A stretch of 57,251 nt of DNA from a virus. Taxonomy: Duplodnaviria > Caudoviricetes. Below, piece by piece: positions 7,838 to 49,044 of the stretch. Both the position numbers and the translations under genes were made by a program. The stretch is taken from the IMG/VR virus record IMGVR_UViG_3300025608_000026, positions 1-57,251 of that record. One strand, given 5' to 3'. The first letter of the stretch is position 1, and each line of letters opens with the position of its first letter. The notes beneath the pieces are model-generated. The model was given only the letters and a program-made list of their open reading frames with translations, was not told where the DNA came from and did no database searches.

Positions 7838-10800
7838 TTATTGTACATTAAATGTTATTGTAGTGTTTCCGCTTGGTTCTGACGGTGGATTACCATTAAC
7901 TAAGGTAGCGCTGGTCATTGAGCCAATACCAAGATACTCGTTTTGAGATGAGTTTGATTGTATTGAAAACTCATAAGCGTTTTCATTATTAGCTAAGCCA
8001 TTAGATATGCTTTTTAAGTTATCTTTTTTATAAAAATCTATAGGACCGTTCGGATCTATTAAATTATTTAATTCAGTGATAACGTTAACATTGCTAATAC
8101 CATTTATATTGTTATACCATTTACCTTCTTTATTTTCAAAATCAATAACATAACCAGCTTGTTGATCGGTAAGTATAAAAGGAACTTGCCAACCAGCCGT
8201 TCCCTCGTAGTTAATTGTTTTAAAACTTTTAATTGCAGAGGGTTCTTGATTAAATACAGTAGTTAAGTATGATTTATATTGAACATTGTAAAAGTTATTT
8301 CTATTAACGTTTACTGAATTATGCTGCCATATATCACCTTGATTAAATGTATAAAAAATGTTATTAACAGAAACACCAGCTTCTGGCACATATGAAACCC
8401 TAGAAACCCAACCTTTTTGATCTTCAGAAAAAGTTAAACTATAATCGTCTAAAGACAATAAGTATTGTCCATTATAAGAATCATAGCTACCTATTAACTT
8501 GCTTGAATTGGAATTTAGTTTGTCTCTAAAGAAATCACTCATTCCGGATTCTGAAATTTCAGTAATGCCATCTGTTGATATTCTTATGACAGAACCTCTT
8601 GGTCTATCTGTAAAATACATTCTATTCGCATACGATGCAAAAGACGACGGGTCTAGCCCAATACCAAAATCACCTAAAAACGGAGTGGTCTGTCCTAATA
8701 CTCTATTAGAAGCTACAACCTGTGGGTTACCTGAACCACTATACAATATGTCTTTATCAGCCATTATTGTGAACACTTTGCTTTCGCATAAAGCCACTAA
8801 ATTAGTGTCTCTTGTGTGAAGCTTTTGCAAGCTGCCATAGTTGGGTTCCAAATCTTTAGTTATACCATCTGAATAAACAAATTCATTTAACCTGTTTGTT
8901 CCAGTTCTAGAGTTATATATTCCAGAAAATATTAAACCAGCTTTTCTTCTTTCTTTTGCGTAGTTTTCTTGTGGCACATTTACTCTAACGCCCTTAGCCA
9001 TTTGAACAGAATTGAACTTATCAAATACTCTTTGTGTTTCTAAAAACACCCCATCTTTAACAAACGCAATACAATTATAAAAGTCTAGCGTGTGTGTATT
9101 CCCGTGCTCTGCAATAGGTATAGACTTGCTAGCTTCCCAAAATAAGTTAAGATTACTATCTTCAATTTCAGGAACTGTTTCAAACCATATTGTTTGCAAT
9201 GTGTTTACTTCGTTCTCATCATTGAAGGTAGATTGACCTGTTGGTAACTTGTGTAATCCTACTGGAATTTTTAGTTCTTTGCCTAGCAATGTTTTTCTAA
9301 CCGTAAAGTTTTTATTGCTTGTACTTCTTTTTACTTTAGCAAAGAAAGATCCTTGTATATTTTTAAGAGCATTTTCCGTAATCTCGCCTTTAAATATTGC
9401 AAAGTCTTGATCTCTAGGGTTTACTCCAACCGGCTCTTCTAAAACAATTTTCAAGATGTCTCTAACGTCGTGATTTTGGTCATAGTTGTGTTGAGAAAAA
9501 CCTAATGAAATTTCAAGAATTTTTATTTTATTTTCGGTTGATTTAATTGTATCACTTGTGCCTAAATCACCTACTCCATACCAAAGACCCCCTTCTAATT
9601 CAGAAACGTCAATTGTTTGAACCCATTCAGCAGGTTGGATTTCGCTAACATCGTCTCTTACTGACAAACTTCCTAAATTTTCAAAAGCAAGAATATTATT
9701 AAGAGCTGATATTAAAGGTATGTTTTTATATCCACTTGAATTATTACTTATTTCGTAAAAAAGTTCCGTATCGTTTTCAGTGTATAAGCTAGAGTGCTGG
9801 TCGTTGTTACCTCCAAAACCTTCTTTCGTTAAGAACACGCGCTTACTACTGTCAGTTAGAAAATTAAAACTGTCACTTACGTAACCATACTGCACGGTGC
9901 TGCCGACTTTTCTTGTTTCTACAGGCAGCTGGTTTCTAACTATATCTGGAGCTTCGTTTTCAATTTCTATTATACGGTGCTTAGATAAATTTTTAACTAT
10001 ATGGTTAAACTGCTCTACGGGTGGAGCTGTTGCATTAGGATCAACAGGAGTAGATAATGTTCTAAATGTAGTATCAACAATATTCATGTAAACATTCCCC
10101 TTATCTCTTGATCTTTCTTTAAAAATCACAGGACGCACTCTGTCGCCCACCTCTAGTTGATACTCTACGGTAACATAAAACCTAAAGTCTTTTTCGCTAT
10201 TACCATCCTTTTTTATGTCTGTTATTATATAGTTTGCTGCTCTTTCATATCCAACCCCGCCTGGTTGGCTGCTGAGACTCGCAAAAGTTTGATTATTTTT
10301 TACTTTTTGAAAAGAAGCGTTGGAGCGTATAAAAGCATTATTTTTATTGAACGCTTTAGTTCTTCTAACAAAATTAAGGTCTCCTTCAAACTCAAAAGAA
10401 TAGTTACCCGCAACAGTACATGTAAAAATCCAATCAGGGTTGTTGCATGTACTATTAAGCCCGTTATGTTTTGCCGACTGGTCGGAAGTGCCTGCAACAC
10501 CAGGAGCCCAAATAACGGTATTCCTGGTTTCTAAATCCTCACTTTTGTCTACATTAAAGTTAATAGTATTTAAACTTCCGTCTGTAATATCACTAGACTG
10601 TTTAGTAAAAGCAAGTGAGTTAGTACCGTTACCGGTGATTAGATCACCGTGAGTATGTCTTCTAGGTATTATAAAAGTATCTTCACTTACTTTATTTCTG
10701 TCATTAGAATCTATTTGCAACCATATAAACTCGCTATTGTCTTTATCTCCATCGCCATCATTAAACGTGTTGTAAACAGGAAAATTATGGTGGTCGTTAG

Positions 10801-12103
10801 AAGAGTCCTTAACGTAGTATTTGAAATGAGTTGCCCACTGTTCTTGCGGTGATTTTTCCGCATTAGGCACTGCACTCGTTATTTTAGCTTCTAAAGACTG
10901 GGTTCCGTCAGAACTAAACTTACTTGTATATTTAGTTCCTTCGCCTACTAAAAGTGCTCCTTGTCTGCCAAAAGCGTCTTCGTAAACAACTCCAACTTCA
11001 TAATCCCTAGCTCCCTTAACGCTTAATCCGCTAAAAGTTGATTTTTCCTTTTGAGTTACTGTTATATCAGCGGAAGCTTCTTGCTCGAAGCCAAATTCAT
11101 AGTTACCATATATAAGTCTATTAGCAGTAACCTCTTGAGCTTTAGCTAAGGTTGGTATACTATCAAAATGTCTTGATAATTGATTATTAGGTAGAGCCGA
11201 GTAAAAAGATCTTTTTGTAAACACCTGATCTTTTATATAATTAGGATCTGTACCAAAATCTTTTTTACGTATTGTTTTTAAAGTATATACAGTTGAACTT
11301 ATTGATTCTGTGTATAGCACTTCTACTTCAATAACATCTTCTTCTCCTCTTGGTATATTACCAACGGTTATTTCTGTTACTATATTTCTAGCTGCTTTGT
11401 TATAACCTTCTTTAAAATGCTCTTTTGAGTCATACTCATCAACTTCAAATACAGGTTCTGTAAAAAACGAGAACGGGCTGTATTCGCCATCTGAAAATTT
11501 CCATCTGTATGCAAATTGCGGAAATATTTCTTCAAAAGGAAGTATTTCTTTATCTGCATCAACAACAGTTTTAATTGTTAACCTTTCCTTTGGGTGCGGT
11601 TTGATTACAGTTAAATCGCTATCTAAAAAGTTTCTTGAATATATTTTTGTTGGAACTGCTGAATGATTCGCTTTTTTCCACTTACTAATATTAAGTTTAC
11701 GTGGCTCATTTCTGTCGTCTGTCCAAAACAACATTCCATCAATGATGTTAATTCCAGTAATTAAAAAATCAGTTGAAAAGTTTAAAGTACCACGTACCAA
11801 TATATTTACTTTTCCTGAAGCGGGTACATATTCATATATTCCATCAAAAGCAGTAGCTTTTATAAACCAATACACATTACCAGTCGATGAATCTGCTATT
11901 GAACCAATAACCTTGGCACTAGGCTCATTTATAACACCAACAGCTTCGTTGCCCAATAAGTTTTCAACAGTGCTAGCGTCTGATGATTCTGAAGTGCCTA
12001 TATTTACATTTAAAGCATCTCGATATTCTCCGGGACTAATTAGCCGTTCGTCTAAATCTTTATTTAAACGACCTGCTAAAAATGTATTTTTAATTTCTGG
12101 CAT
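7838..12103 (-). CDS. Tail tubular/nozzle (stabilisation, P22 gp10-like) protein
   Basis: 1421 aa; N-terminal F..G.LNKDLDERL..GEYRDALN and beta-propeller-like segments typical of crAss-like/podoviral nozzle proteins; synteny. Confidence 0.7.
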   Translation of the reverse strand: MPEIKNTFLAGRLNKDLDERLISPGEYRDALNVNIGTSESSDASTVENLLGNEAVGVINEPSAKVIGSIADSSTGNVYWFIKATAFDGIYEYVPASGKVNILVRGTLNFSTDFLITGINIIDGMLFWTDDRNEPRKLNISKWKKANHSAVPTKIYSRNFLDSDLTVIKPHPKERLTIKTVVDADKEILPFEEIFPQFAYRWKFSDGEYSPFSFFTEPVFEVDEYDSKEHFKEGYNKAARNIVTEITVGNIPRGEEDVIEVEVLYTESISSTVYTLKTIRKKDFGTDPNYIKDQVFTKRSFYSALPNNQLSRHFDSIPTLAKAQEVTANRLIYGNYEFGFEQEASADITVTQKEKSTFSGLSVKGARDYEVGVVYEDAFGRQGALLVGEGTKYTSKFSSDGTQSLEAKITSAVPNAEKSPQEQWATHFKYYVKDSSNDHHNFPVYNTFNDGDGDKDNSEFIWLQIDSNDRNKVSEDTFIIPRRHTHGDLITGNGTNSLAFTKQSSDITDGSLNTINFNVDKSEDLETRNTVIWAPGVAGTSDQSAKHNGLNSTCNNPDWIFTCTVAGNYSFEFEGDLNFVRRTKAFNKNNAFIRSNASFQKVKNNQTFASLSSQPGGVGYERAANYIITDIKKDGNSEKDFRFYVTVEYQLEVGDRVRPVIFKERSRDKGNVYMNIVDTTFRTLSTPVDPNATAPPVEQFNHIVKNLSKHRIIEIENEAPDIVRNQLPVETRKVGSTVQYGYVSDSFNFLTDSSKRVFLTKEGFGGNNDQHSSLYTENDTELFYEISNNSSGYKNIPLISALNNILAFENLGSLSVRDDVSEIQPAEWVQTIDVSELEGGLWYGVGDLGTSDTIKSTENKIKILEISLGFSQHNYDQNHDVRDILKIVLEEPVGVNPRDQDFAIFKGEITENALKNIQGSFFAKVKRSTSNKNFTVRKTLLGKELKIPVGLHKLPTGQSTFNDENEVNTLQTIWFETVPEIEDSNLNLFWEASKSIPIAEHGNTHTLDFYNCIAFVKDGVFLETQRVFDKFNSVQMAKGVRVNVPQENYAKERRKAGLIFSGIYNSRTGTNRLNEFVYSDGITKDLEPNYGSLQKLHTRDTNLVALCESKVFTIMADKDILYSGSGNPQVVASNRVLGQTTPFLGDFGIGLDPSSFASYANRMYFTDRPRGSVIRISTDGITEISESGMSDFFRDKLNSNSSKLIGSYDSYNGQYLLSLDDYSLTFSEDQKGWVSRVSYVPEAGVSVNNIFYTFNQGDIWQHNSVNVNRNNFYNVQYKSYLTTVFNQEPSAIKSFKTINYEGTAGWQVPFILTDQQAGYVIDFENKEGKWYNNINGISNVNVITELNNLIDPNGPIDFYKKDNLKSISNGLANNENAYEFSIQSNSSQNEYLGIGSMTSATLVNGNPPSEPSGNTTITFNVQ

Positions 12104-21933: not shown

Positions 21934-22190
21934 TATTTAGTACGGCCCTCCACACCAAAAAACTCACGCTTTTCTTTTTTGCTATCTGCGTTCAACGACT
22001 CAAGCTCTTCTACTTTAGCCATCATAGCCATGGCATCTTCCATAGCTAATCTATAGGCTGATGCTGAAACTTTAACTTTTTCTGGATCTACTTCATTAAG
22101 ATCCATCTTCTTATCCATAACTTTGATAAGTTCGTTAATAGCGTTTTCAGAAGCTTTTAGTAGTTCTATTCTTTTTTTCTTTATGTCCAT
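21933..22190 (-). CDS. Putative terminase small subunit
   Basis: Helical protein (likely start MDIKKK at 22190) directly upstream of and TAATG-coupled to TerL. Confidence 0.45.
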   Translation of the reverse strand: MDIKKKRIELLKASENAINELIKVMDKKMDLNEVDPEKVKVSASAYRLAMEDAMAMMAKVEELESLNADSKKEKREFFGVEGRTK

Positions 22191-22743
22191 AGTTGATAGT
22201 AATGTCTTGTGATAAAATTCTATATAATTTTTTATCATCTATGTTAAACTCATATTCAGAATCAGGTGTAAACCCAACCACATCCCCATAGGACAACCCT
22301 AAGGAGTTTAAATAATCATTTGTATATGTAAGCCTCCCTAATAGTTTTTGTTCGCTATCGGTGCTCCATATGTCTTCGTTCTCTATTGGCTCCACAAAGC
22401 AATACTGAATTGGGCAATGCCATTTACCGTTTTGCTTGTATGCGAATATTTGATCCTGAGCTACAGTATAGTTATTTTCATCAATATAGTTACCAGAGTT
22501 TCTTTCGTTGCCTCTAACATCAAACCAACGTCTGAATACATTGTGATGCACTATAACTTCATCACCTGTCTTTATAGGCGTTTTGATATTAATAGGAGCA
22601 TTAACAACAGTTCCTATTCTATTAACAAAATGATAATCTCTTTCTGTAATTTCAGTGTTTAAAATTAATTCTTTGTCATCGACAGACACTTTATTATCGT
22701 ATCGATTATTAGTTGATATAATATAATTGTATAATGATTTCAT
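22147..22743 (-). CDS. Tandem double GroES-like (Cpn10-fold) protein
   Basis: Both halves align by eye with GroES: GTVVNAP..IKTGDEVIV..YTVAQDQIFA, and CFVEPIENED..GDVVGF..EFNIDDKKLYRILSQDI. Confidence 0.6.
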   Translation of the reverse strand: MKSLYNYIISTNNRYDNKVSVDDKELILNTEITERDYHFVNRIGTVVNAPINIKTPIKTGDEVIVHHNVFRRWFDVRGNERNSGNYIDENNYTVAQDQIFAYKQNGKWHCPIQYCFVEPIENEDIWSTDSEQKLLGRLTYTNDYLNSLGLSYGDVVGFTPDSEYEFNIDDKKLYRILSQDITINYGHKEKKNRTTKSF

Positions 22744-35023: not shown

Positions 35024-35283
35024 TATAAAACTATAATAACATCCTGCTCTTGTATAACCTTAAATACATCATTACCGATTTCAATATTATGACCAGCATG
35101 CCTATCGTAATATATCTTATCATTTTCATTTATACCTTCGACAAACGTACCAACTGACTTTACGTCAGCGGTACGGTATCTTATATCTTCTCTGTGGTTT
35201 TCTGCAAGTAACAGCCCACCCTCAGTTTTCTTTATGTCTTCTTTTATTTCAGAAACAATTATATATTTACCTATTGCCTTCAT
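35023..35283 (-). CDS. groES: Co-chaperonin GroES
   Basis: 86 aa; KTEGGLLL mobile loop, SVG, DKIYY, IQEQDVI; adjacent to groEL. Confidence 0.9.
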   Translation of the reverse strand: MKAIGKYIIVSEIKEDIKKTEGGLLLAENHREDIRYRTADVKSVGTFVEGINENDKIYYDRHAGHNIEIGNDVFKVIQEQDVIIVL

Positions 35284-36865
35284 TCTCTCTCATATTTGAA
35301 ATTACACAATCAGTTGATAATATAGTCGTTGCTACAGAAACTGCATTTTGCAAGGCAGACTTTGTAACTAGCACTGGATCGATAATACCTGCTTTACGCA
35401 TGTCTTTAATCTTACCGTCTGTTACGTCAACACCCATACCCCACTTACTTAGATCTTTAAAATCAGAAGGATCTAAACCAGCGTTGGTTAAAATTTTAAC
35501 GAACGGTGAATGGAATGATTTTTTCATAATATCAATACCTAATTGTTCACCTTCGTTTTTAGCGGGTACATTCAGTGTAGAAGCTAAAAAACATAAGGCA
35601 GCACCTCCACCTGGAAGTATACCTTCTTTCTTAGCCGCGCGAACCGCGTGTATAGCATCATCAACTCTGTCTTTTTTCTCAGACACTTCAACTTCAGTAT
35701 CACCGCCTACATATACAATAGACACGCCTCCATTTAAAATAGCTAATCTACTTTCAATGTGTGGTCGCATAACGTGGTGATCTTCTTCAGCTAGTTGTGC
35801 TTGCAAATACTCTACTCTTTCATTTACTCCGTCTGGCGCTTCAGCAATTGCTAAAGTTGTACCGTCATTATCTATAATGGCTTTGTCAGCCGACCCTAAC
35901 ACTTCAGGGGTGATATTGTCTAAAGAATCACCTAGATTCTCGTCAATAACAGTAGCACCCGTTAGAAGGGCAATATCATCCAGAACATCCTTTCGTTTTA
36001 GCCCGAACGACGGTGGATCGATAATATTGCACTTAATATTGCCCTTTACGTGATTCATTGCTAATGCAGAAACAACTTGCTGGTCGCAAGGGGCAATGAG
36101 TAATAGCGATCTATTGGACTTGATTGCAAACTCTAATATTGTTTGTATGCGTCTGATATTAGATACCTCAGACGAACATAAAAATACAAGTGGCTTTTCT
36201 AGCTCACTTATTTCTTTTTCTCTATTTGTATGAAAGTGCATACTTTTCGATGTAGACTTAATATGAGTACCGTCTACAGATTCAATATACGTTTCATTTG
36301 TTGGGCTGGTCTCCATTGTAACCACTCCATTCTCGCCAGCTAGTTTAAAAGCTTCTGCGATAAAGTCCCCTAACACGGGGTCATTGTTTGCTGATATACG
36401 CGAAACGTGGTTTAGTCTCTTATCATCTACAGCAACTCCTTTTTTAGTTAGAACATCCACAGCGTGTTTTGTAAAAGCCACCATGCCATTCTTAACGTCT
36501 CTAAATGAATACGATTCAGCGTCTTTATCAAAATAGTTTTTAATGATAGATTGCGCAAGAACCGTAGATGTTGTTGTACCGTCACCTGCTTTTGATGCTG
36601 TTTGTCGAGACGCCTGTTTTAACATAGTAACCCCTAAATTTTCAACAGGGTCTTCTAAGTTAATGTAATTTGCAACAGTTACCCCATCTTTTGTAACGTG
36701 AGGGCTACCGAAGTCATCTTCCAATACTACGGTGCGACCAGAAGCACCTAAAGTGCTCCCTACCGCTTCCGCTAGTTTATTTATGCCTGATATAAGTCCG
36801 TTCTTAGCTTCTTGTTTAAAACTTAGTTTCTTGACTATCTTGGGCGATCCGAATTGTATTGCCAT
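35267..36865 (-). CDS. groEL: Chaperonin GroEL
   Basis: TLGASGR.V, VTKDGVTVA, AGDGTTT, EKKDRVDDA, GILPGGG, GIIDP..VT..AL.NA.SVA; no GGM tail. Confidence 0.97.
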   Translation of the reverse strand: MAIQFGSPKIVKKLSFKQEAKNGLISGINKLAEAVGSTLGASGRTVVLEDDFGSPHVTKDGVTVANYINLEDPVENLGVTMLKQASRQTASKAGDGTTTSTVLAQSIIKNYFDKDAESYSFRDVKNGMVAFTKHAVDVLTKKGVAVDDKRLNHVSRISANNDPVLGDFIAEAFKLAGENGVVTMETSPTNETYIESVDGTHIKSTSKSMHFHTNREKEISELEKPLVFLCSSEVSNIRRIQTILEFAIKSNRSLLLIAPCDQQVVSALAMNHVKGNIKCNIIDPPSFGLKRKDVLDDIALLTGATVIDENLGDSLDNITPEVLGSADKAIIDNDGTTLAIAEAPDGVNERVEYLQAQLAEEDHHVMRPHIESRLAILNGGVSIVYVGGDTEVEVSEKKDRVDDAIHAVRAAKKEGILPGGGAALCFLASTLNVPAKNEGEQLGIDIMKKSFHSPFVKILTNAGLDPSDFKDLSKWGMGVDVTDGKIKDMRKAGIIDPVLVTKSALQNAVSVATTILSTDCVISNMRENEGNR

Positions 36866-40375: not shown

Positions 40376-40513
40376 TTATTTGTTTTTTCTGCATTTAGCA
40401 ATAGCTCCAGACGCATAAGCGCTCGGGAATACCTTGTATTGCTTCTTCACCTTATGGTAACACGCATCTTTTTTAAATAAAGGCGATGTTGCCTGTGGTC
40501 TACTCTTTTTCAT
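40376..40513 (-). CDS. Small basic protein (45 aa), first gene of the late arm (not in ORF track)
   Basis: MKKSRPQATSPLFKKDACYHKVKKQYKVFPSAYASGAIAKCRKNK. Confidence 0.7.
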   Translation of the reverse strand: MKKSRPQATSPLFKKDACYHKVKKQYKVFPSAYASGAIAKCRKNK

Positions 40514-40527
40514 AATATCGATGTTTT

Positions 40528-40742
40528 ATAGATAACTCCCCGTCCATACGGTTACAGGGAGCTAATCTATCTTACGAATGATGCAACGACCTGTACATTC
40601 ACTGTCTCAACCACTTCCTAGGTGGTATCTGAAAGGAACTAGGCTATGCGACTATGACACCTGCCTGATAAGCAGCCCTAACACAACGTGTCCATTAAGG
40701 TAGCGAAATATCATAAGCGCATATATAAGTATGCGGGTATCG
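40528..40742. ncRNA. Candidate structured non-coding RNA/leader
   Basis: ORF-free, GC-richer island with five adjacent hairpins and possible pseudoknot pairings. Confidence 0.45.
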
Positions 40743-41167
40743 TTTTTAATTAGTACAAATAAAGAATGATTGTGTTACGCTACACATTTAGCAATAAAAC
40801 CTAAATATAAAGTCCATATTGACAACGTATGCGGCTATGTATTGCATTATTTGCAGTGTTTGTGTATATATACATGTATAATTGCGTTATTGTTGCTACT
40901 AATTTTTTATCAGTTAGTTACACGCATTGTTACATACTCAATCATTGTAGCTATTTATTGAATAATATGCAAACATATGTATTGAATACTATTATATTAG
41001 TGAATAATTCTATGTTTATTCGCACTGTATTCAATTGCTTTATTACTGTTTGCATTATTATTGTTATATAATATGTTTTATCACATTATATTTAAAATAA
41101 CTTAAGTTTATTACTTATATAATATATATTACATAAAATTGTAAAAAGGTATAATTTTGTAATAAAA

Positions 41168-41200
41168 TACGTTACAAACCTTATTGTATTGTGATAATAT
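41168..41200 (+). promoter_or_regulatory. Repeated promoter-like motif, copy 1
   Basis: TACGTTACAA-N13-GTGATAATAT. Confidence 0.8.
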
Positions 41201-41224
41201 AAGTGTAATTAAAATATAAACATT

Positions 41225-41356
41225 ATGAAAAATTTAAACAAAATACTAGAGAGCTACAAAGGTTCGAACATGAACAAAGTGAGATTGAGCTATAAGTTAA
41301 AAAGTTATTATAACTTAAATGAAAATGAAAGAATTTATTTAAATAATAATCTTTAA
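41225..41356 (+). CDS. Early micro-ORF (43 aa)
   Basis: MKNLNKILESYKGSNMNKVRLSYKLKSYYNLNENERIYLNNNL; fills the space between motif copies 1 and 2. Confidence 0.6.
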   Translation: MKNLNKILESYKGSNMNKVRLSYKLKSYYNLNENERIYLNNNL

Positions 41357-41359
41357 AAA

Positions 41360-41392
41360 TACGTTACAAACTAACTATAAAAGTGATAATAT
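41360..41392 (+). promoter_or_regulatory. Repeated promoter-like motif, copy 2
   Basis: TACGTTACAA-N13-GTGATAATAT. Confidence 0.8.
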
Positions 41393-41418
41393 AAGTGTAA
41401 TTAAAAAATAATAATAAT

Positions 41419-41592
41419 ATGAGATTTCCAAAAACATTTACTAAAGAAAACAAAATAACTTTTTACACACAAAGAAAAAGAGAAATGGAAAATAGATTTA
41501 TAAAATCTATGAATGAAAACAAAGAAGATTTATCTAATAAAATAAATGAAGAGATAAAGATTTGTGAAAAAGAATTAAGTAAACTATTATAA
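41419..41592 (+). CDS. Early micro-ORF (57 aa)
   Basis: MRFPKTFTKENKITFYTQRK...EKELSKLL; stop codon abuts motif copy 3. Confidence 0.65.
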   Translation: MRFPKTFTKENKITFYTQRKREMENRFIKSMNENKEDLSNKINEEIKICEKELSKLL

Positions 41593-41594
41593 AA

Positions 41595-41627
41595 TACGTT
41601 ACAAAGTAAAAGTAAAAGTGATAATAT
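41595..41627 (+). promoter_or_regulatory. Repeated promoter-like motif, copy 3
   Basis: TACGTTACAA-N13-GTGATAATAT. Confidence 0.8.
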
Positions 41628-41650
41628 AAGTGTAATTAAAATAAAGAAAT

Positions 41651-41797
41651 ATGAAAATGTTTAAAGTAACAAAAGTACAAACTTGGAATAAAAACGGAAT
41701 ACCAACTAATTGGATTAAGTATATGAAAAGTGAAACAATTGAAAATGTAATAAAGCATTTTGGAACTGAAAACATTTTGAAAGTAGAAGAATGTTAA
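41651..41797 (+). CDS. Early micro-ORF (48 aa)
   Basis: MKMFKVTKVQTWNKNGIPTNWIKY...ILKVEEC; lies between copies 3 and 4. Confidence 0.65.
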   Translation: MKMFKVTKVQTWNKNGIPTNWIKYMKSETIENVIKHFGTENILKVEEC

Positions 41798-41803
41798 AAT
41801 AAA

Positions 41804-41836
41804 TACGTCACAAACTAAATAGAAATGTGATAATAT
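41804..41836 (+). promoter_or_regulatory. Repeated promoter-like motif, copy 4
   Basis: TACGTCACAA-N13-GTGATAATAT. Confidence 0.8.
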
Positions 41837-41840
41837 AAAT

Positions 41841-41888
41841 GAGAGTTTTATAAAATTAGTTGCCTCTCTTAAAACAATATTAACTAAT
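41841..41888 (+). promoter_or_regulatory. Candidate H-type pseudoknot in 5' leader
   Basis: P1 GAGAG(41841-45)/CTCTC(41864-68); P2 ATTAGTTG(41855-62)/TAACTAAT(41881-88). Confidence 0.4.
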
Positions 41889-41914
41889 GAAGCACACAAA
41901 TAAAAATATACAAT

Positions 41915-42136
41915 ATGAAAGAATTAAAAGAATACATGGAAGCTAAGAAAAAAGCTAACGCTTTAAAGTGGATGAAAGAAGATGGCTTCAACACTATCCA
42001 AGGATTCACACAGAACGAGTTTAATGAGTCTATGAAACAAATTAAGCGTAAGACCTCAACTACAAGAAGAAGTCACTCTAAAGGTAACTTATGGAACCAT
42101 ACAAATTTACCAAGAATTAAACAAGATATTTTATAA
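41915..42136 (+). CDS. Early hypothetical protein (73 aa)
   Basis: ORF track; A-rich leader. Confidence 0.65.
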   Translation: MKELKEYMEAKKKANALKWMKEDGFNTIQGFTQNEFNESMKQIKRKTSTTRRSHSKGNLWNHTNLPRIKQDIL

Positions 42137-42264
42137 TGGCAAATATATACAACCAAAAGTTTGAACTACACTTAATAAAAAAAGGGTATAACTTAAACAC
42201 AATAAGCTTAACCGAAAGTATAAAAGAATTAAAAAAATACGTTGCAAAACAAAAACAAAAGTGA
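42136..42264 (+). CDS. Early micro-ORF (42 aa)
   Basis: MANIYNQKFELHLIKKGYNLNTISLTESIKELKKYVAKQKQK; TAATG-coupled. Confidence 0.55.
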   Translation: MANIYNQKFELHLIKKGYNLNTISLTESIKELKKYVAKQKQK

Positions 42265-42270
42265 TAATAT
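42238..42270 (+). promoter_or_regulatory. Repeated promoter-like motif, copy 5
   Basis: TACGTTGCAA-N13-GTGATAATAT. Confidence 0.75.
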
Positions 42271-42286
42271 AATAAACAATAATGAT

Positions 42287-42616
42287 ATGCAAATAAAAAG
42301 AAACACAATGAACGAAGTAATAGTAAAAGATTTAATGAGCAATAAGTTTCCTGCATACCATAACAATAAAAACGGTATCGATTGCTGGTCACTATACAGA
42401 GGTCTAAAAGATCCTTACAACCACAACCAAACCGATCCACGAGTTACACTAATCTTGCACAGACCACATAGCTCAACATACGTAACATTGTCTGGCGACT
42501 ACAAAGAAGTTGCTGAATACATTACAAACCACGAATATAACTTTGAATCATTCATCGAACAAGATAAAAAACTAGGTGACTACTTAACAAGCGACGAAGG
42601 CAAATGGGGACTATAA
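42287..42616 (+). CDS. Early hypothetical protein
   Basis: ORF-track frame; start moved to ATG 42287 (or 42308), downstream of motif copy 5. Confidence 0.65.
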   Translation: MQIKRNTMNEVIVKDLMSNKFPAYHNNKNGIDCWSLYRGLKDPYNHNQTDPRVTLILHRPHSSTYVTLSGDYKEVAEYITNHEYNFESFIEQDKKLGDYLTSDEGKWGL

Positions 42617-42741
42617 AGAAAAAGAAAACAAATAGAGTAACTATAGCAAAGTTAACTAAAGAAAGAATACAAATAATAGAACAAGAATACTATGAACGAT
42701 ACAACTCAGGTATTCCACAATGGCAACAAAATATGTACTAA
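42604..42741 (+). CDS. Early micro-ORF (45 aa)
   Basis: MGTIKKKKTNRVTIAKLTKERIQIIEQEYYERYNSGIPQWQQNMY. Confidence 0.5.
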   Translation: MGTIKKKKTNRVTIAKLTKERIQIIEQEYYERYNSGIPQWQQNMY

Positions 42742-42742
42742 T

Positions 42743-42943
42743 ATGAAAAACACATGGATATTTTACGGACAATCTCACGATGGAATAAGAACTTTGCACC
42801 ACATTAAAGAATGTAAACGACCTGAAGCAACAAAAGAATATAAACAAATGATGCAGCTATTAGAAGATAATACTTATCATGTTACTGGTTATATGACAAG
42901 TAAGAAATGGAATCAAGAAAATCAATACATAAAAGTAATATAA
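42743..42943 (+). CDS. Early hypothetical protein (66 aa)
   Basis: ORF-track frame, likely start MKNTW. Confidence 0.6.
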   Translation: MKNTWIFYGQSHDGIRTLHHIKECKRPEATKEYKQMMQLLEDNTYHVTGYMTSKKWNQENQYIKVI

Positions 42944-43065
42944 TGAACACAATAGAACACTGCAGTATGTGCAACGAGCTTTTAGGCGAAGAAGAAGAAA
43001 AGTATTTTACTTTTGCTGTACACGAATTGCCTTTGTGTATGGAATGCACACTAAAAGATTGGTAA
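42943..43065 (+). CDS. CxxC...CxxC zinc-finger micro-protein (40 aa)
   Basis: MNTIEHCSMCNELLGEEEEKYFTFAVHELPLCMECTLKDW. Confidence 0.6.
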   Translation: MNTIEHCSMCNELLGEEEEKYFTFAVHELPLCMECTLKDW

Positions 43066-43068
43066 AAA

Positions 43069-43101
43069 TACGTTACAAACTAAATAAACAAGTGATAATA
43101 T
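43069..43101 (+). promoter_or_regulatory. Repeated promoter-like motif, copy 6
   Basis: TACGTTACAA-N13-GTGATAATAT. Confidence 0.8.
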
Positions 43102-43124
43102 AATTGAATATAAAAATAAATAAC

Positions 43125-43451
43125 ATGCAATCAAATAACAAACTAAACGAACTACAACAAGAATTCAACGACGAAGTATGGAATGCTTTCCACAACGCAG
43201 AAATAAACGACCACGATGATTTTTACGAGTACATGCATGCTTACATTGACAATGCAGTTATCTATTATGCAGATTGTGATGCTATACTCGAAGGAAATAG
43301 CGACTACCATTACAACGAACACGATTTATTTGATCGCCCTAATAGTTTAGAACAAGCAGCTTACGCTTGCTTATATGATTATCTAACCGAAAACGACGAC
43401 ACTGTTGTGTGGTCACAACTAGAAGAAGTACTAAACGAAGGAAAAGAATAA
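43125..43451 (+). CDS. Ocr-like (T7 gp0.3) DNA-mimic anti-restriction protein
   Basis: 108 aa, about 26 D/E versus 3 K/R; DDFYEYMHAYIDNAVIYYAD resembles T7 Ocr [21 protein letters not shown]. Confidence 0.65.
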   Translation: MQSNNKLNELQQEFNDEVWNAFHNAEINDHDDFYEYMHAYIDNAVIYYADCDAILEGNSDYHYNEHDLFDRPNSLEQAAYACLYDYLTENDDTVVWSQLEEVLNEGKE

Positions 43452-43462
43452 TAACAAAATTA

Positions 43463-43514
43463 AAAATTAAACATATATACTGATAATTAAAACACAAAAT
43501 TAAGCATATATACT
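43463..43514 (+). repeat. 19-bp direct repeat pair upstream of the tRNA-like RNA
   Basis: AAAATTAA(A/G)CATATATACT at 43463 and 43496. Confidence 0.6.
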
Positions 43515-43525
43515 AAAAACAAAAC

Positions 43526-43608
43526 GGGCGAGAAGTAGATTGACCGACAACGATGCACGAATAGCAACTCTATCGGAAACGCGGGTGCAACTCCCGCCTC
43601 GTCCACTA
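43526..43608 (+). ncRNA. Mini tmRNA-like RNA (tRNA-like domain only, Ala identity)
   Basis: 7-bp acceptor stem GGGCGAG/CTCGTCC with G3-U70 and A discriminator; T-arm GCGGG-TGCAACT-CCCGC; stemless D-loop ending TTGAC; CCGA/TCGG helix. Confidence 0.7.
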
Positions 43609-43632
43609 AATTTAATAAAACAATACAATAAT

Positions 43633-43740
43633 ATGACAATAGAAAATAAACTATGCTTGACTCAAAACTTAATTGATTTGTTCTTATCAGGTAAAATAAA
43701 CGAAGAAACATTTAACGAAACAATATTAAAATTAGGATAA
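43633..43740 (+). CDS. Early micro-ORF (35 aa)
   Basis: MTIENKLCLTQNLIDLFLSGKINEETFNETILKLG. Confidence 0.5.
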   Translation: MTIENKLCLTQNLIDLFLSGKINEETFNETILKLG

Positions 43741-43741
43741 T

Positions 43742-44074
43742 ATGACAACACTAGAAAAATTTCAAGAAGTATCAAAAATTTATTTTGTAGAGTCCGGCGG
43801 CGATTTAGGAATAGGTACACTACTAACTGCTGATGGCTATGATCTACACTATATTTCAGGCGACTTACGCAACTTAAACTGGGAAAATGAAGTATATTAC
43901 TATCAACCAGAATTTGACGCGATAATGGCAACTATAGACGAATACAGATTTAATAACGAAACAATAGCTGTTCAAGTTTATGATCTTGAAGATTATTTTG
44001 ACGAGTTTTATATGCTCGACTGGTTGCAAGACAACATGGACGAAGATGAATTTAACCAATTTACTAATGAATAA
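43742..44074 (+). CDS. Highly acidic early protein (possible nucleic-acid mimic)
   Basis: 110 aa, about 26 D/E versus 4 K/R; stop abuts motif copy 7. Confidence 0.65.
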   Translation: MTTLEKFQEVSKIYFVESGGDLGIGTLLTADGYDLHYISGDLRNLNWENEVYYYQPEFDAIMATIDEYRFNNETIAVQVYDLEDYFDEFYMLDWLQDNMDEDEFNQFTNE

Positions 44075-44107
44075 TACGTTACAAACTAATTGTTAACGTG
44101 ATAATAT
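44075..44107 (+). promoter_or_regulatory. Repeated promoter-like motif, copy 7
   Basis: TACGTTACAA-N13-GTGATAATAT. Confidence 0.8.
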
Positions 44108-44130
44108 AATTGAATATAAAATAAATAACT

Positions 44131-44331
44131 ATGGAACTTAATACAAGTATAAGTAAAACAGCAAAACAAATTGCAGATAAAACAACCGACTTTGTTTTTG
44201 AAGAACTAAACCACATAATTGAATGGCAACTAAGTGGAGACGAATATGACCATTTTCTAAATGACGACTATGAGTTAGTTAAAAGTTTGGCAATCAAAAC
44301 AATAATTGAAAACATTTACAAAAGATTATAA
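44131..44331 (+). CDS. Early hypothetical protein (66 aa)
   Basis: ORF track; follows motif copy 7. Confidence 0.65.
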   Translation: MELNTSISKTAKQIADKTTDFVFEELNHIIEWQLSGDEYDHFLNDDYELVKSLAIKTIIENIYKRL

Positions 44332-44332
44332 T

Positions 44333-44626
44333 ATGAATGATAAACAAATACACGAACGTGCTATACACAAAGCTGAATCTAAAATAAGTTTTATTGAGCT
44401 TGAAATGACTGTGCTTGAAAACGAAGTACCTTACATGGGCTACACTACAGAAATGATTGAAGGGCAACAAGCTTTCAAACGCAAAGAGATTGACACATGG
44501 CGCTATATAATAGACTGTATTAAAATAGTAGAAACACAAAGAATGATCGAAGAAGAAAAATATATCAAATCAGGAATGACTAATGTTGAATTACTACAAT
44601 CGTTAGCCGACTTAAACGCAAAATAA
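44333..44626 (+). CDS. Early hypothetical protein
   Basis: ORF-track frame, likely start ATG 44333. Confidence 0.65.
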   Translation: MNDKQIHERAIHKAESKISFIELEMTVLENEVPYMGYTTEMIEGQQAFKRKEIDTWRYIIDCIKIVETQRMIEEEKYIKSGMTNVELLQSLADLNAK

Positions 44627-44627
44627 T

Positions 44628-44786
44628 ATGACAGAATTAGAAATCGCACAACTAGACAGAGTAAACAACATCAAAGCATTAAAAACAATTGATGCTAAAG
44701 TTAATTATGTATACAACGCATTTGATATGGGATTGTCCCGAATGAATGAAGTAAGAGAATACTTTAAATTAAACATGAAAGAATAA
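44628..44786 (+). CDS. Early micro-ORF (52 aa)
   Basis: MTELEIAQLDRVNNIKALKTIDAK...FKLNMKE; stop abuts motif copy 8. Confidence 0.6.
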   Translation: MTELEIAQLDRVNNIKALKTIDAKVNYVYNAFDMGLSRMNEVREYFKLNMKE

Positions 44787-44788
44787 AA

Positions 44789-44821
44789 TACGCTACAAAT
44801 GAAATACATAAGTGATAATAT
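44789..44821 (+). promoter_or_regulatory. Repeated promoter-like motif, copy 8
   Basis: TACGCTACAA-N13-GTGATAATAT. Confidence 0.75.
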
Positions 44822-44871
44822 AACTGAAGAAATTAAAAAAATGTTTAACGAATTTTCTAACTACGAATGCA

Positions 44872-45090
44872 ATGGGTAAACTAAAAGTTCTATACAAGGG
44901 TAAATGGTATGAGTATTTAATTAACACGCAAGTTATTGATAAACAACTAGATAACACAATAGAAAATATATTAAAATATTATCCTAAAGACGCTATAATT
45001 GAATTTGATGAAAACCCTGATATAACTAATATAAATACGTTACAAGAAACAATTAATCGTGATAATGAAAGTAAACAAAATAACATTTGA
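44872..45090 (+). CDS. Early hypothetical protein (72 aa)
   Basis: ORF track. Confidence 0.55.
   Translation: MGKLKVLYKGKWYEYLINTQVIDKQLDNTIENILKYYPKDAIIEFDENPDITNINTLQETINRDNESKQNNI
45036..45068 (+). promoter_or_regulatory. Repeated promoter-like motif, copy 9 (inside ORF end)
   Basis: TACGTTACAA-N13-GTGATAATGA. Confidence 0.65.
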
Positions 45091-45385
45091 TAAAATAAAT
45101 GCACGGTGGAACATAATGAAAATGACTTCAGCGTATATAAATGCAGAAAAAATATTAATACAACAAACCGCAGTAGACATCGAGCAAAATAACGATACTG
45201 AAATATCATTTATTATGGATAACTTCGGTAATTCAAGACAATTAACACCTAAAGAAGTATTAAAAATTAAATTAGATGCTTTTGAATTGCAAGGTGCAAA
45301 GCTCCTTGAAGAAGAAAAATACGAACTATTTGCAGAATTAAAAGAACTATATGAAAAATACAAACAAGAATATGACAGACTTTAA
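45059..45385 (+). CDS. Hypothetical protein with UVR-like helical C-terminus
   Basis: ORF track; ends LLEEEKYELFAELKE; true start probably further downstream. Confidence 0.55.
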   Translation: MIMKVNKITFDKINARWNIMKMTSAYINAEKILIQQTAVDIEQNNDTEISFIMDNFGNSRQLTPKEVLKIKLDAFELQGAKLLEEEKYELFAELKELYEKYKQEYDRL

Positions 45386-46504: not shown

Positions 46505-46735
46505 ATGCAGGAATTACTGAAAAACTTAAAGAAGCTCGCAAATCTATTAAGAAGAAACGCCCGCAAAAAGGATCACGCTGAACACTTATTTAAATCAATA
46601 CGAGTATTACGTAGCGAAATAATAGATGATGTGTTACAAGGCTCCATACGAGGCCGTATACCCGTTAAATCACTTAAACACAAAGCTGAGTTAATCAGAA
46701 AATACAGCAGAAGACTAAAATTATTAAGAACATGA
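46505..46735 (+). CDS. Basic hypothetical protein
   Basis: 76 aa, ATGA overlap with the sigma gene. Confidence 0.55.
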   Translation: MQELLKNLKKLANLLRRNARKKDHAEHLFKSIRVLRSEIIDDVLQGSIRGRIPVKSLKHKAELIRKYSRRLKLLRT

Positions 46736-47463
46736 AATGGTACAGCCATGCAACATACAAATCGCACTTAAACCAACTGTCTATAATTAACAGGATAGAT
46801 GAGGAAAGAGCACCGTATATAGAATGGCCAAAATCTATGGCCAATATATTCGAGCGTTCTTATCCTAGGATAGGTGTTTTAGATTTAACAGATTTAATGC
46901 AAGAAGGCTATTGTTCTTTTTACAGAGCATGGAACAAGCTTGATTGGGAACTTATCAATAATGCAGACGAAGAAGATCGGCCTGGCATTATAACGAACTA
47001 TTTAAAACTAAATATAAAAAATGGAATTAGAAGAGCTATAGCTCGCGATAGAGAAACTATCAGAATACCAGAATCATATTACACTATGAAACCACACGGA
47101 AACGCTCACGGCGGTAAATACGATGAAGCATATCAAACTGATATATTCTTAACCAAAACATTCGCTTCGTTCTTTAGTAACTATTACTTAGACGTTGCAG
47201 ACGAGCCTTATGGCTATGAACAAGAGAAGTTAAATGATTTACTTAATGAAGTAATGAACGAACATCTTAGTTTAATTGAAAAACAAGTTTTGTGCGCTTT
47301 TTTTGGTATCGATGAACCATATGACAACAAAGCATCAGTGAATGCAATAGCTGCAAGATTTCACCGATCAGACATATGGGTTAAGAAAATTAAAGCAAAC
47401 GCTTTGAAAAAGATGCAACAACCGCACATTAAAGAAATAATTGAAAAATACTTGCAAAATTAG
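46732..47463 (+). CDS. Sigma-70 family (RpoD-like) RNA polymerase sigma factor
   Basis: Region 2 DLMQEG...AWNKLDW and IRRAIARDRETIRIP (RpoD: DLIQEG, IADQARTIRIP); region 4 LSLIEKQVL..FFGID...IAARF..S..WVKKIKANALKKM. Confidence 0.85.
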   Translation: MKWYSHATYKSHLNQLSIINRIDEERAPYIEWPKSMANIFERSYPRIGVLDLTDLMQEGYCSFYRAWNKLDWELINNADEEDRPGIITNYLKLNIKNGIRRAIARDRETIRIPESYYTMKPHGNAHGGKYDEAYQTDIFLTKTFASFFSNYYLDVADEPYGYEQEKLNDLLNEVMNEHLSLIEKQVLCAFFGIDEPYDNKASVNAIAARFHRSDIWVKKIKANALKKMQQPHIKEIIEKYLQN

Positions 47464-47511
47464 TATACTTTTCACTAAATTTATGTAATATATATTATAT
47501 ATAATAAAGTT

Positions 47512-47751
47512 ATGAATACAAAATTATATGACATCGAAGATGACATTATTGACAGAGGTGATGCAACAAACATCACTGAAGCATTAAGTTATTATGCTAT
47601 TGAAAATGATAGTCCTTCGGACATTGAAATCTTAAACCAAAAGGTAGAACAAGATTATCACAACACGTACTATAACGCTAAAACAAAGTCTTATGGTACA
47701 CGAACAATTAAACTCGCCAATAAGGATTGGCACAAATTAAATAAAGTATGA
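47512..47751 (+). CDS. Hypothetical protein
   Basis: 79 aa ORF. Confidence 0.55.
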   Translation: MNTKLYDIEDDIIDRGDATNITEALSYYAIENDSPSDIEILNQKVEQDYHNTYYNAKTKSYGTRTIKLANKDWHKLNKV

Positions 47752-48320
47752 ATATAAATGAAAAGCTAAGTAAAATTCAGCACGATTTTAAAGCTAAAAA
47801 AAGTCGTAAGAATAACTTTGGTAACTATTATTTTAGATCTGCCGAAGATATTCTTGAAGCTATTAAACCCTTCTTGACAGAGCTAGGTGTTTATGTTACC
47901 ATTAATGAACGCGTTATTCTTTCAGAACAGTTTCCAATCATTGAAAGCGTTGCAACTATATCCGATGGTAAAGATGCTATACAAGCTGCCGCAATCGTAG
48001 GTGTTGATTTAAACCAAAAAGGTATGCAAATGCCACAAAAGTTTGGTTCAGCATCATCTTATGGTAAAAAGTATGCGTTAGGTAATCTATTGCTTATTGA
48101 TGATACAGCTGACGCTGACGCTACTAATAATCATGGCAAAGGTACTATCAATAGAACAATACCTGGTGCTAACAATGCTAACGCAAAGGTTAAGCCTGAA
48201 ATTACAGAAGCTAACATTGATAAAGCTAAAAAGTTTTTAGCTAACGGCGGGAAGATTGAAACATTACAACAAACATATTTAATTAGTAATGATATTTTAA
48301 ATAAACTAAAGAATGGATAA
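47748..48320 (+). CDS. ERF-family ssDNA annealing protein
   Basis: K...NNFGNY.FRSAEDILEA.KP and Q.FGSASSYGKKYAL..LLLIDD..DAD motifs. Confidence 0.85.
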   Translation: MNINEKLSKIQHDFKAKKSRKNNFGNYYFRSAEDILEAIKPFLTELGVYVTINERVILSEQFPIIESVATISDGKDAIQAAAIVGVDLNQKGMQMPQKFGSASSYGKKYALGNLLLIDDTADADATNNHGKGTINRTIPGANNANAKVKPEITEANIDKAKKFLANGGKIETLQQTYLISNDILNKLKNG

Positions 48321-49044
48321 ACAAGAGATATTAGAAAAGCTACGTGATGATGAGCACTACTACGGAGATTTTGGTAAAACCTATTTAAGTAATAGTGATA
48401 TTATGGCGTTGCTAAATAATCCTCTTGATTTCAAGAAGCAGTCTCCACCAACCACAGCAATGGTTATTGGGGGATATTTTCACACATGCATCCTCGAGCC
48501 TCACAAGCTTGAAAAGTACAAAATTGTTAAAGCATCTACACGGAACACTAAAGTTTACAAAGAAGTAAGCGGCAGTGATATTTGCCTTCTGGAAAAAGAA
48601 GCAGATGAAATTGAATTAATGCGTGAGGCTATGTTAGGTAATGAATTATTCAGAGACTTAATACAAGAAGGCAATGTTGAATACGAGGTACCTGGTTTAG
48701 TAGAGCTCGAGGGCATGACGTGGAAAGGTAAAGCTGATATCGTTAACCATACTCACCAACTGGTTATAGATTTAAAAACTACAGGTGATATTTCAAAGTT
48801 TACTAATTCAGCATATAGGTTTAACTACGACAGTCAAGCGTATATATATTCACAAATGTTTGGATATGATTTAGTATTTATAGTTGTTGACAAAAAGACT
48901 CATCAATTAGGTTTGTTTGATTGCAGCGATCGATTTATTCAATCCGGAATGAATAAAGTTTCAAATGCAGTACAAGTTTATGAAGAATACTTTGTTAATG
49001 GCGATGGCGATTTTAGCCAACATTATATTTCGAAAACCCTTTAA
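48313..49044 (+). CDS. PD-(D/E)XK exonuclease, RecE/ExoVIII-like
   Basis: LSNS, AM..G..FH..ILEP, KGKADI, IDLKTT and YD.QAY.Y motifs. Confidence 0.85.
   Translation: MDKQEILEKLRDDEHYYGDFGKTYLSNSDIMALLNNPLDFKKQSPPTTAMVIGGYFHTCILEPHKLEKYKIVKASTRNTKVYKEVSGSDICLLEKEADEIELMREAMLGNELFRDLIQEGNVEYEVPGLVELEGMTWKGKADIVNHTHQLVIDLKTTGDISKFTNSAYRFNYDSQAYIYSQMFGYDLVFIVVDKKTHQLGLFDCSDRFIQSGMNKVSNAVQVYEEYFVNGDGDFSQHYISKTL

Follow-up and report, generated by a model that had tools for sequence, protein, structure and literature searches.

The stretch of DNA analysed here, referred to below as the window, is the whole of IMG/VR virus record IMGVR_UViG_3300025608_000026 (57,251 bases, estimated to be 89% complete). 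It comes from a crAss-related marine podophage, and our subject is an array of nine copies of a short repeat (41168-45068) that a first-pass annotation had read as promoters doubling as recombination joints between exchangeable cassettes of tiny genes. The minus-strand arm (224-40394) encodes terminase, portal and virion proteins, lysis genes and GroEL/GroES-like genes. Beyond an AT-rich divergent gap the array stands first in the plus-strand arm, and is followed there by genes for DNA ligase, a sigma-70-family factor, Erf, an ExoVIII-like nuclease, a primase-helicase, ThyA, MazG and ribonucleotide reductase. The host is probably a member of the marine Flavobacteriia, because the 87 terminase relatives among deposited phages belong, with the exception of one unclassified record, to phages of Flavobacterium, Cellulophaga, Tenacibaculum and Maribacter, and because the leaders of the small genes are A-rich and lack a Shine-Dalgarno sequence. 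Leaders of this kind are described for Bacteroidota in the accessible text of PMC6847099.

The repeat array and its small genes

A pattern search of the record with TACGTTACAA-N13-GTGATAATAT returned the same nine starts that the first-pass annotation had listed, all on the plus strand. Five copies are exact (41168, 41360, 41595, 43069 and 44075), three carry one mismatch (41804, 42238 and 44789), and the copy at 45036 carries two, its second box ending in TGA in place of TAT. The annotation had described two fixed words around a 13-nt spacer; the length of the spacer is indeed constant in all nine copies and its sequence variable, but the fixity of the words was slightly overstated, given one or two mismatches in four of the nine. 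Only 0.02 matches to the pattern are expected by chance, none of 100 shuffled sequences reached nine, the strand count is nine forward to zero reverse, and a control with the reversed pattern matched nowhere. A weight matrix built solely from 75 distinct copies in related contigs scored the nine sites at 35.9 to 63.8 bits, and a scan of both strands of the record with this matrix revealed no further site above 12 bits (the best of five shuffles scored -3.3). In the output of a repeat finder, the array accounts for the two largest families of direct repeats in the record. The motif recurs in 32 related IMG/VR contigs, in every one of which all copies lie on a single strand; megablast matched the array to none of 50,697 phage records.

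The array contains seventeen tightly packed small open reading frames (ORFs) of 35 to 110 residues, all on the plus strand (41225-45385), with A-rich leaders devoid of a Shine-Dalgarno sequence. At least eight have fewer than 60 codons, as the annotation had remarked. Copy 1 (41168-41200; exact, 57.4 bits) heads a 43-residue ORF at 41225-41356; copy 2 (41360-41392; exact, 62.6 bits) heads one of 57 residues at 41419-41592, and orthologous copies precede the same gene family in the relatives L061 and L063. Copy 3 (41595-41627; exact, 62.1 bits) heads a 48-residue ORF at 41651-41797, and its counterpart junction in L063 has no motif. These first three copies share the extension AAGTGTAATTAAAA, and copies 6 and 7 share AATTGAATATAAAA, as the annotation had stated. 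Copy 4 (41804-41836; one mismatch, 47.9 bits) heads two ORFs, 41915-42136 (73 residues) and 42136-42264 (42 residues), from behind an unusually long leader of 78 nt on the plus strand (41837-41914) containing an inverted repeat, GAGAG...CTCTC. Both the motif and this leader are missing in L063 and in contigs of one run (X2), and across natural variants (runs X2 and X21, and L063) the leader and the motif are each present or absent.

Copy 5 (42238-42270; one mismatch, 51.5 bits) overlaps the last codons and the stop of ORF 42136-42264 and heads four ORFs (42287-42616, 42604-42741, 42743-42943 and 42943-43065). Copy 6 (43069-43101; exact, 63.8 bits), at whose edges several contig joints are located, heads a 108-residue ORF (43125-43451), a tRNA-like element and the ORFs 43633-43740 and 43742-44074. 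Copy 7 (44075-44107; exact, 57.4 bits) heads ORFs 44131-44331, 44333-44626 and 44628-44786, and copy 8 (44789-44821; one mismatch, 48.8 bits) a 72-residue ORF (44872-45090). Copy 9 (45036-45068; two mismatches, 35.9 bits) lies within that last ORF, its -10-like box spoiled to TAATGA, and runs across the conserved start codon of a further ORF (45065-45385); both mismatches are retained in L061 and L063, and it is probably a decayed or weak copy. The overlap of copy 5 with an ORF end and the position of copy 9 inside an ORF and across a start codon had escaped the annotation. Its observation that a stop codon lies 0-6 nt before copies 2, 3, 4, 6, 7 and 8 agrees with the sequence, the gaps being 3, 2, 6, 3, 0 and 2 nt, respectively.

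The small ORFs are real protein-coding genes, as judged from the pattern of their divergence: differences from L061 and L063 concentrate at the third codon position (203, 145 and 383 at positions 1, 2 and 3). None of 19 small proteins matched a PHROG and none passed the Pfam cut-off, which leaves the label of anti-defence or host-takeover genes once attached to them unsupported. No terminator-like hairpin was predicted on the plus strand between 41168 and 45400; since none is predicted between units, these are probably expressed as nested, overlapping transcripts running on into the ligase and sigma genes.

The tRNA-like element within the copy-6 unit (43526-43608, plus strand; 83 nt) has an acceptor stem, a T arm and a CCA-like end and lacks normal D and anticodon arms. 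It scored 24.3 bits with a tmRNA model and 24.5 bits with a tRNA model, both below the gathering thresholds, and ARAGORN called no tRNA or tmRNA gene, at this element or elsewhere in its search. The element is 88% identical in L061, and in contigs of run X3 it occurs beside varying neighbours, as if it were a module moving by itself.

Motif anatomy and the host promoter consensus

The anatomy of the motif is that of an extended -10 promoter of the sigma-70 type: an A-tract, a -35-like TTACAA, a 17-bp spacer and TG-n-TAATAT, the sequence TTACAA, 17 bp, TG-A-TAATAT being present in eight of the nine copies. Measured against TTGACA-17-TGnTATAAT, the consensus given in PMC6847099, the -35-like and -10-like hexamers each agree at four of six positions. 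A generic sigma-70 scan is uninformative in such AT-rich DNA (50 sites found, 42.5 expected). Positions outside the search pattern are conserved as well, as assessed in 88 unique copies from the window and the 32 related contigs. The four bases preceding the motif are A in 80-93% of copies, the AA directly after TAATAT (A34/A35) is conserved in 92% and 90%, a TG three bases further on in 80% (T37) and 73% (G38), and an A seven bases past TAATAT (A40) in 86%; this A is the likely start point. The motif is near-invariant although the surrounding arrays are only about 76% identical.

Placement accords with the same function. All nine copies are co-directional with the genes; among 93 distinct copies, an ORF start lies 14-30 nt downstream in 57 (mode 23-24) and the stop of a preceding ORF 0-8 nt upstream in 37. 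Anatomy and placement thus agree with the promoter role proposed by the first-pass annotation, and we consider with good confidence that the nine repeats are promoters heading short operons of tiny genes. The array would stand at the head of the rightward (early/replication) arm, each copy starting an operon of one to four such genes. From its upstream end, a copy would comprise a short A-tract, AATACG and TTACAAA at about -40 to -29, a 12-13-nt spacer free in sequence and fixed in length, TG-n-TAATAT at about -15 to -7, then AA-n-TG and the conserved A as the likely start, followed by a leader of about 16 nt lacking a Shine-Dalgarno sequence. A bacterial-type RNA polymerase holoenzyme would read the repeats.

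One copy tells against this assignment: copy 9 cannot act as the promoter of ORF 45065-45385 because it covers the conserved start codon of that ORF. Sequence from 24 runs, all in the form of contigs, covers the region; contigs from RNA runs extend across the promoters, an observation that argues neither for nor against promoter activity.

Two strictly conserved words at a fixed distance could also mark sites bound by a regulator or a replication protein, such as operators, iterons, or sites of partition or packaging. In a second layout of the motif, described below, one word lies a helical turn (11 bp) nearer the core, as sites bound by a factor typically do. Iterons and packaging sites, however, usually stand in clusters and are not separated by genes. 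The copies here extend across 3.9 kb with one at each operon head, keep a near-constant distance from the next start codon, are strictly co-oriented with the genes and contain a -10-like hexamer and a conserved start-like A. We regard binding sites of this kind, in place of promoters, as very improbable.

The motif departs from the promoter type expected of the host. In the accessible text of PMC6847099, Bacteroidota promoters are defined by a -33 element, TTTG, and a -7 element, TAHHTTTG, with near-invariant T-12, A-11, T-8, T-7, T-6 and G-5. The motif fits at most four of these six positions, or five in copies 6 and 7; its best register, TATAAnTG, places A at the -8 position in 90% of copies and leaves the -7 position free, so the motif does not carry the Bacteroidota primary-sigma -7 element. 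By comparison, the middle promoters of the Cellulophaga crAss-like phage phi14:2 are reported in the accessible part of bioRxiv 10.1101/2020.03.07.982082 to be read by host polymerase, and the same work, a precedent for promoters of this general build, describes conserved -35/-10-like phage promoters in a Cellulophaga phage; as read from the genome record, the middle promoters have the form TTG-N19-TAnnTTTG, the canonical host type. The first-pass annotation mentioned neither the unlikeness of the motif to a host promoter nor the dependence of its layout on the phage sigma factor, considered below.

A single canonical host-type -7 box, TAATTTTG (41152-41159, plus strand), occurs in a relevant intergenic place, 9 nt before copy 1. 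It is possible that this box forms a host-read entry promoter for the whole arm. An exact TAHHTTTG within 130 nt upstream of the first copy is found in a minority of relatives only.

The phage sigma factor and two layouts of the motif

Downstream of the array, and co-directional with it, lies a gene for a sigma-70-family factor of 243 residues (46732-47463, plus strand; phrog_351, E-value 1.6e-11). Its profile matches SigA/RpoD regions 2 and 4 (E-value 2e-14), the Sigma70_r4 match falling below the cut-off. The start of this gene is always overlapped by the gene of a conserved, basic 76-residue protein (46505-46735). A scan of IMG/VR with a sigma alignment retrieved 232 relatives, of which the best 80 (L097-L176), together with the sigma factor of the window, gave 81 loci for comparison. 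A quick tree splits them deeply into clade I (15 rows) and clade II (66 rows), and the layout of the motif divides in the same way.

The layout of the window, geometry I, occurs 34 times on the plus strand and never on the minus strand in the 15 clade-I loci, and on neither strand in the 66 clade-II loci. A second layout, geometry II, consists of TTACAAA, three bases, AATACGA, eight or nine bases and GATAATAT; it occurs 248 times on the plus and twice on the minus strand in the clade-II loci, and once and twice, respectively, in the clade-I loci. Among loci with at least 4.5 kb of upstream sequence, two or more plus-strand copies were present in six of seven from clade I (geometry I) and in 39 of 43 from clade II (geometry II). 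In geometry II the distance to the core is 11 bp shorter for AATACG, and 5 bp longer for TTACAAA, than in geometry I. The relative L062 shares the gene order of the window and 54-82% amino acid identity in backbone proteins, and only 27% in the sigma factor; there, the promoters ahead of four orthologous genes have geometry II. Conservation between the clades is 28 of 71 positions in the region-2-like part of the sigma factor, 18 of 70 in the region-4-like part and 6 of 41 in the linker. The constancy of the -10-like core and the change in the upstream part fit this better preservation of the region-2-like part.

In three relatives lacking the sigma factor (phi14:2, elemoA and MW202828) the core word occurs at control level only. 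The motif of the window has no copy in phi14:2 at up to three mismatches, and a single copy with three mismatches in MW202828. The motif accordingly changes with the sigma factor and is missing where the factor is missing, in one deep contrast and three sigma-less genomes. A sigma profile search of three phage records was empty, a result that proves nothing there. Using tblastn, we found no cultured relative of the window's sigma factor among deposited phages, and none in Flavobacterium or Cellulophaga phages; a like search with the L062 factor returned distant sigma genes only, 56 of the 61 records being cyanophages and the few others Enterococcus, Staphylococcus or unclassified.

A further element, class B (core TTTATGTAATATATATTATATA), occurs in two copies that a repeat search returned as an inverted pair. 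One (41116-41153, minus strand) faces the 40-kb minus-strand structural arm; the other (47464-47501, plus strand) follows directly upon the sigma stop codon and faces the Erf, exonuclease and replication genes. An element resembling class B comes after the sigma gene in clade I and clade II alike. Class B is a likely second class of promoter and shares the TAATAT hexamer.

These relationships give the phage's own sigma factor (46732-47463) what we judge to be roughly an even chance of being the reader of the array. Several considerations weigh against it. The sigma gene lies downstream of the array and has no other recognisable promoter of its own, and in clade II nine geometry-II copies occur in the 500 nt before the sigma start; copies so placed would better suit an early promoter read by the host, failing which a bootstrap is needed. 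The link between sigma and geometry is effectively one deep split in evolution, which common descent or a common host might equally explain. Class B, too, takes a different form in each clade and may be what the factor really targets. The motif of clade I, moreover, makes a good promoter of the sigma-70 type, and host polymerase may be able to use it.

Alternatively, the repeats could be ordinary early promoters read by the unmodified primary sigma factor of the host, the phage factor serving other promoters later, for example class B. With the array heading the early arm upstream of the sigma gene and no terminator predicted between them, an order of early promoter, then sigma, then later classes would be natural. 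The nine copies ahead of the clade-II sigma start point the same way, as do the sigma-70 architecture of the clade-I motif, given that Cellulophaga polymerase transcribes a sigma-70-type promoter in vitro (in the accessible part of bioRxiv 10.1101/2020.03.07.982082), and the class B-like element past the sigma gene in both clades, facing replication and structural genes. Yet the motif misfits the -33/-7 consensus to which the host-read promoters of phi14:2 conform, the three sigma-less relatives do not have it, the upstream words of clade II lie off the canonical -35 distance (TTACAA is 22 nt from TAATAT), and the geometry switches with the sigma clade even between genomes whose backbones are 54-82% identical. 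Reading by the host factor is a serious possibility, if one that we place clearly below even. Host polymerase acting with another phage factor appears unlikely.

A virion RNA polymerase was also considered as the reader and rejected. The candidate, a 2288-residue protein (968-7834, minus strand), adjoins a 1421-residue protein with crAss "muzzle" domains (7838-12103, minus strand). Its sequence matched nothing in PHROG, Pfam or PDB, and it lacks a DFDxD-type motif, the sole D-x-D-x-D-type match falling in an aspartate-rich stretch; the rejection applies to a record from which about 11% of the genome is missing. Both proteins are probably ejected or tail-associated components of the virion. Elsewhere in the minus-strand arm are GroEL-like and GroES-like chaperonin genes (35267-36865 and 22147-22743, respectively); phi14:2 also has a GroEL gene.

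Positions 40400-40800, which separate the class B copy facing left from the first genes of the structural arm, are relatively GC-rich and apparently non-coding, and 40576-40706 is 85.5% identical in L063. The tract may act as a structured leader or yield a small RNA; it gave no convincing Rfam match.

Mosaic gene content and known systems

Gene-family maps of 14 arrays revealed a mosaic of shared and unique genes whose order varies, so that gene content and order are far from invariant among relatives, in line with the exchangeable array that the first-pass annotation had envisaged. Some differences coincide with the repeat. The unit 41168-41359 (promoter plus 43-residue gene) is missing from L061, L063 has a different promoter-led first gene in its place, and one contig of run X3 joins 43067 to 44095, the exact loss of the copy-6 operon. 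In further contigs 43100 is joined to 43739, or copy 4 is missing along with its leader. Six of the 30 joint ends listed lie within one of the nine motif windows, and these windows account for 7% of the stretch; such joints, matched at below 95% likeness, may stem from other organisms or from repeats. Joints at which a contig goes back are indistinguishable from other gene orders in relatives. Across 12 arrays, adjacencies were broken in 128 of 167 cases (0.77) where a promoter lay between the genes and in 304 of 471 (0.65) where none did, a difference reached in two of 2000 permutations among related, hence not independent, genomes.

Such events invite the view that the repeat is primarily a recombination site and its units mobile cassettes, in the sense of an integron or of the promoter-early stem-loop (PeSL) cassettes of T4-type phages (Arbiol et al. 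2010, PMC2839356; Comeau et al. 2014, PMC4122927), with promoter activity secondary. The mosaic content, the unit 41168-41359 bounded by two copies, the copy-6-to-copy-7 joint, the share of joint ends in motif windows and the more frequent breaks across promoters all lend it something. So does the nearby pair of recombination genes to which the annotation had pointed, which is encoded as described: an Erf-like annealing protein (47748-48320, plus strand) and an ExoVIII/RecE-like exonuclease (48313-49044, plus strand). But about 70% of the broken adjacencies (304 of 432) are at junctions without a promoter, and nine of 60 indel edges lie within 10 nt of a motif window, about as expected by chance for windows covering some 13% of the region; these edges come from pairwise MAFFT alignments, which are noisy and force-align replaced segments. 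Some gene families are always promoter-led (6/6, 5/5 and 4/4, for example) and others never (0/10 and 0/8), in keeping with operon heads that are stable. The gene scan revealed no integrase or site-specific recombinase (45 proteins in the search for an integrase), the motif is not an inverted repeat as an integron site would require, and no stem-loop accompanies it. We think it improbable that recombination is the primary function of the repeat.

The claim that the repeat serves as a recombination joint survives only in part: some events do run from promoter to promoter and breaks are mildly enriched there, but most lie elsewhere and indel edges occur at the level of chance. The motif appears to be a somewhat favoured joint and not the main one. 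On the promoter interpretation, the 25-45 nt of identity between copies would sometimes become the point at which promoter-plus-gene units are gained or lost, as a by-product, and most reshuffling would take place at ordinary gene boundaries.

The array nonetheless shares features with PeSLs, which, as far as the accessible text of the two studies goes, comprise a strong, conserved promoter repeated among small, non-essential and variable ORFs that relatives gain, lose or replace, some events being bounded by two promoter copies. A repeated, putative sigma-70-like promoter among small ORFs is present here in nine copies with 17 ORFs. Assignment to that class, which the first-pass annotation had cited, does not hold: these are not PeSLs because they lack stem-loop terminators, with stop-to-motif gaps of only 0-6 nt and no plus-strand terminator predicted. 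The phage, moreover, is a crAss-related podophage of a Bacteroidota-type host and not a T4-type myovirus, its motif is unlike the host consensus, and breakpoints are only mildly enriched at the motif.

Other systems resemble it in part. In the accessible description of phi14:2, extended, conserved, multi-block promoters belong to a phage of marine Flavobacteriia whose genome plan is like that of the window, with GroEL, a muzzle-type protein and two divergent arms; its sites, however, are of the canonical host type, and no sigma gene was found in it. The phage-sigma systems of phiEco32 (gp36; PMC12276001) and SPO1 (PMC13401047), so far as the accessible text of those reports extends, also combine a sigma-70-family factor of the phage's own with a private, conserved, non-host motif. 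Here, by contrast, the motif heads early-looking small genes upstream of the sigma gene itself, reading by sigma is deduced from co-variation only, and two clades reorder the same three words. Compared with an ordinary extended -10 promoter, the motif has the TG one base before the -10-like hexamer, the 17-bp spacer and the upstream A-tract, but the expected host uses -33/-7 elements, ten plus ten bases are near-invariant, beyond any generic need, and the clade-II version breaks the 17-bp rule. The motif was not found in a phage context among the matches listed in the literature searched, and a search on sigma factors of Flavobacteriia phages gave no paper on that subject.

Judged by its anatomy, placement and conservation, the array is real and no product of chance, a set of phage promoters that are specific to one lineage and stand ahead of ORFan micro-genes. 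The kind of array is itself known, repeated early promoters ahead of small ORFan genes being familiar in phage genomes; what is new is the type of promoter, its mismatch with the host consensus and the switch of layout with sigma clade. Tentatively, and with a little less than even confidence, we propose that private pairs of sigma factor and promoter drive the early/replication arm in a large, uncultured family of marine Bacteroidota phages, with 232 sigma-bearing stretches in IMG/VR, and that two deeply split sigma clades would use the same three words (TTACAAA, AATACG and GATAATAT) in different order. With the other sigma factor, the promoter ahead of every orthologous micro-gene would have been rewritten to match; in one of the clades the distance to the core is shorter by one helical turn for AATACG and longer by half a turn for TTACAAA. 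If this is true, the two clades would provide a natural pair of orthogonal sigma/promoter systems, whose promoters also mark exchangeable units of genes.

The promoters of Bacteroidota phages are barely charted. Should the link to sigma prove causal, the family would offer a compact, testable case of sigma/promoter co-evolution and candidate orthogonal expression parts for Flavobacteriia, and the motif would serve as a sequence tag for the true starts of dozens of micro-genes that gene callers miss in marine viral contigs.

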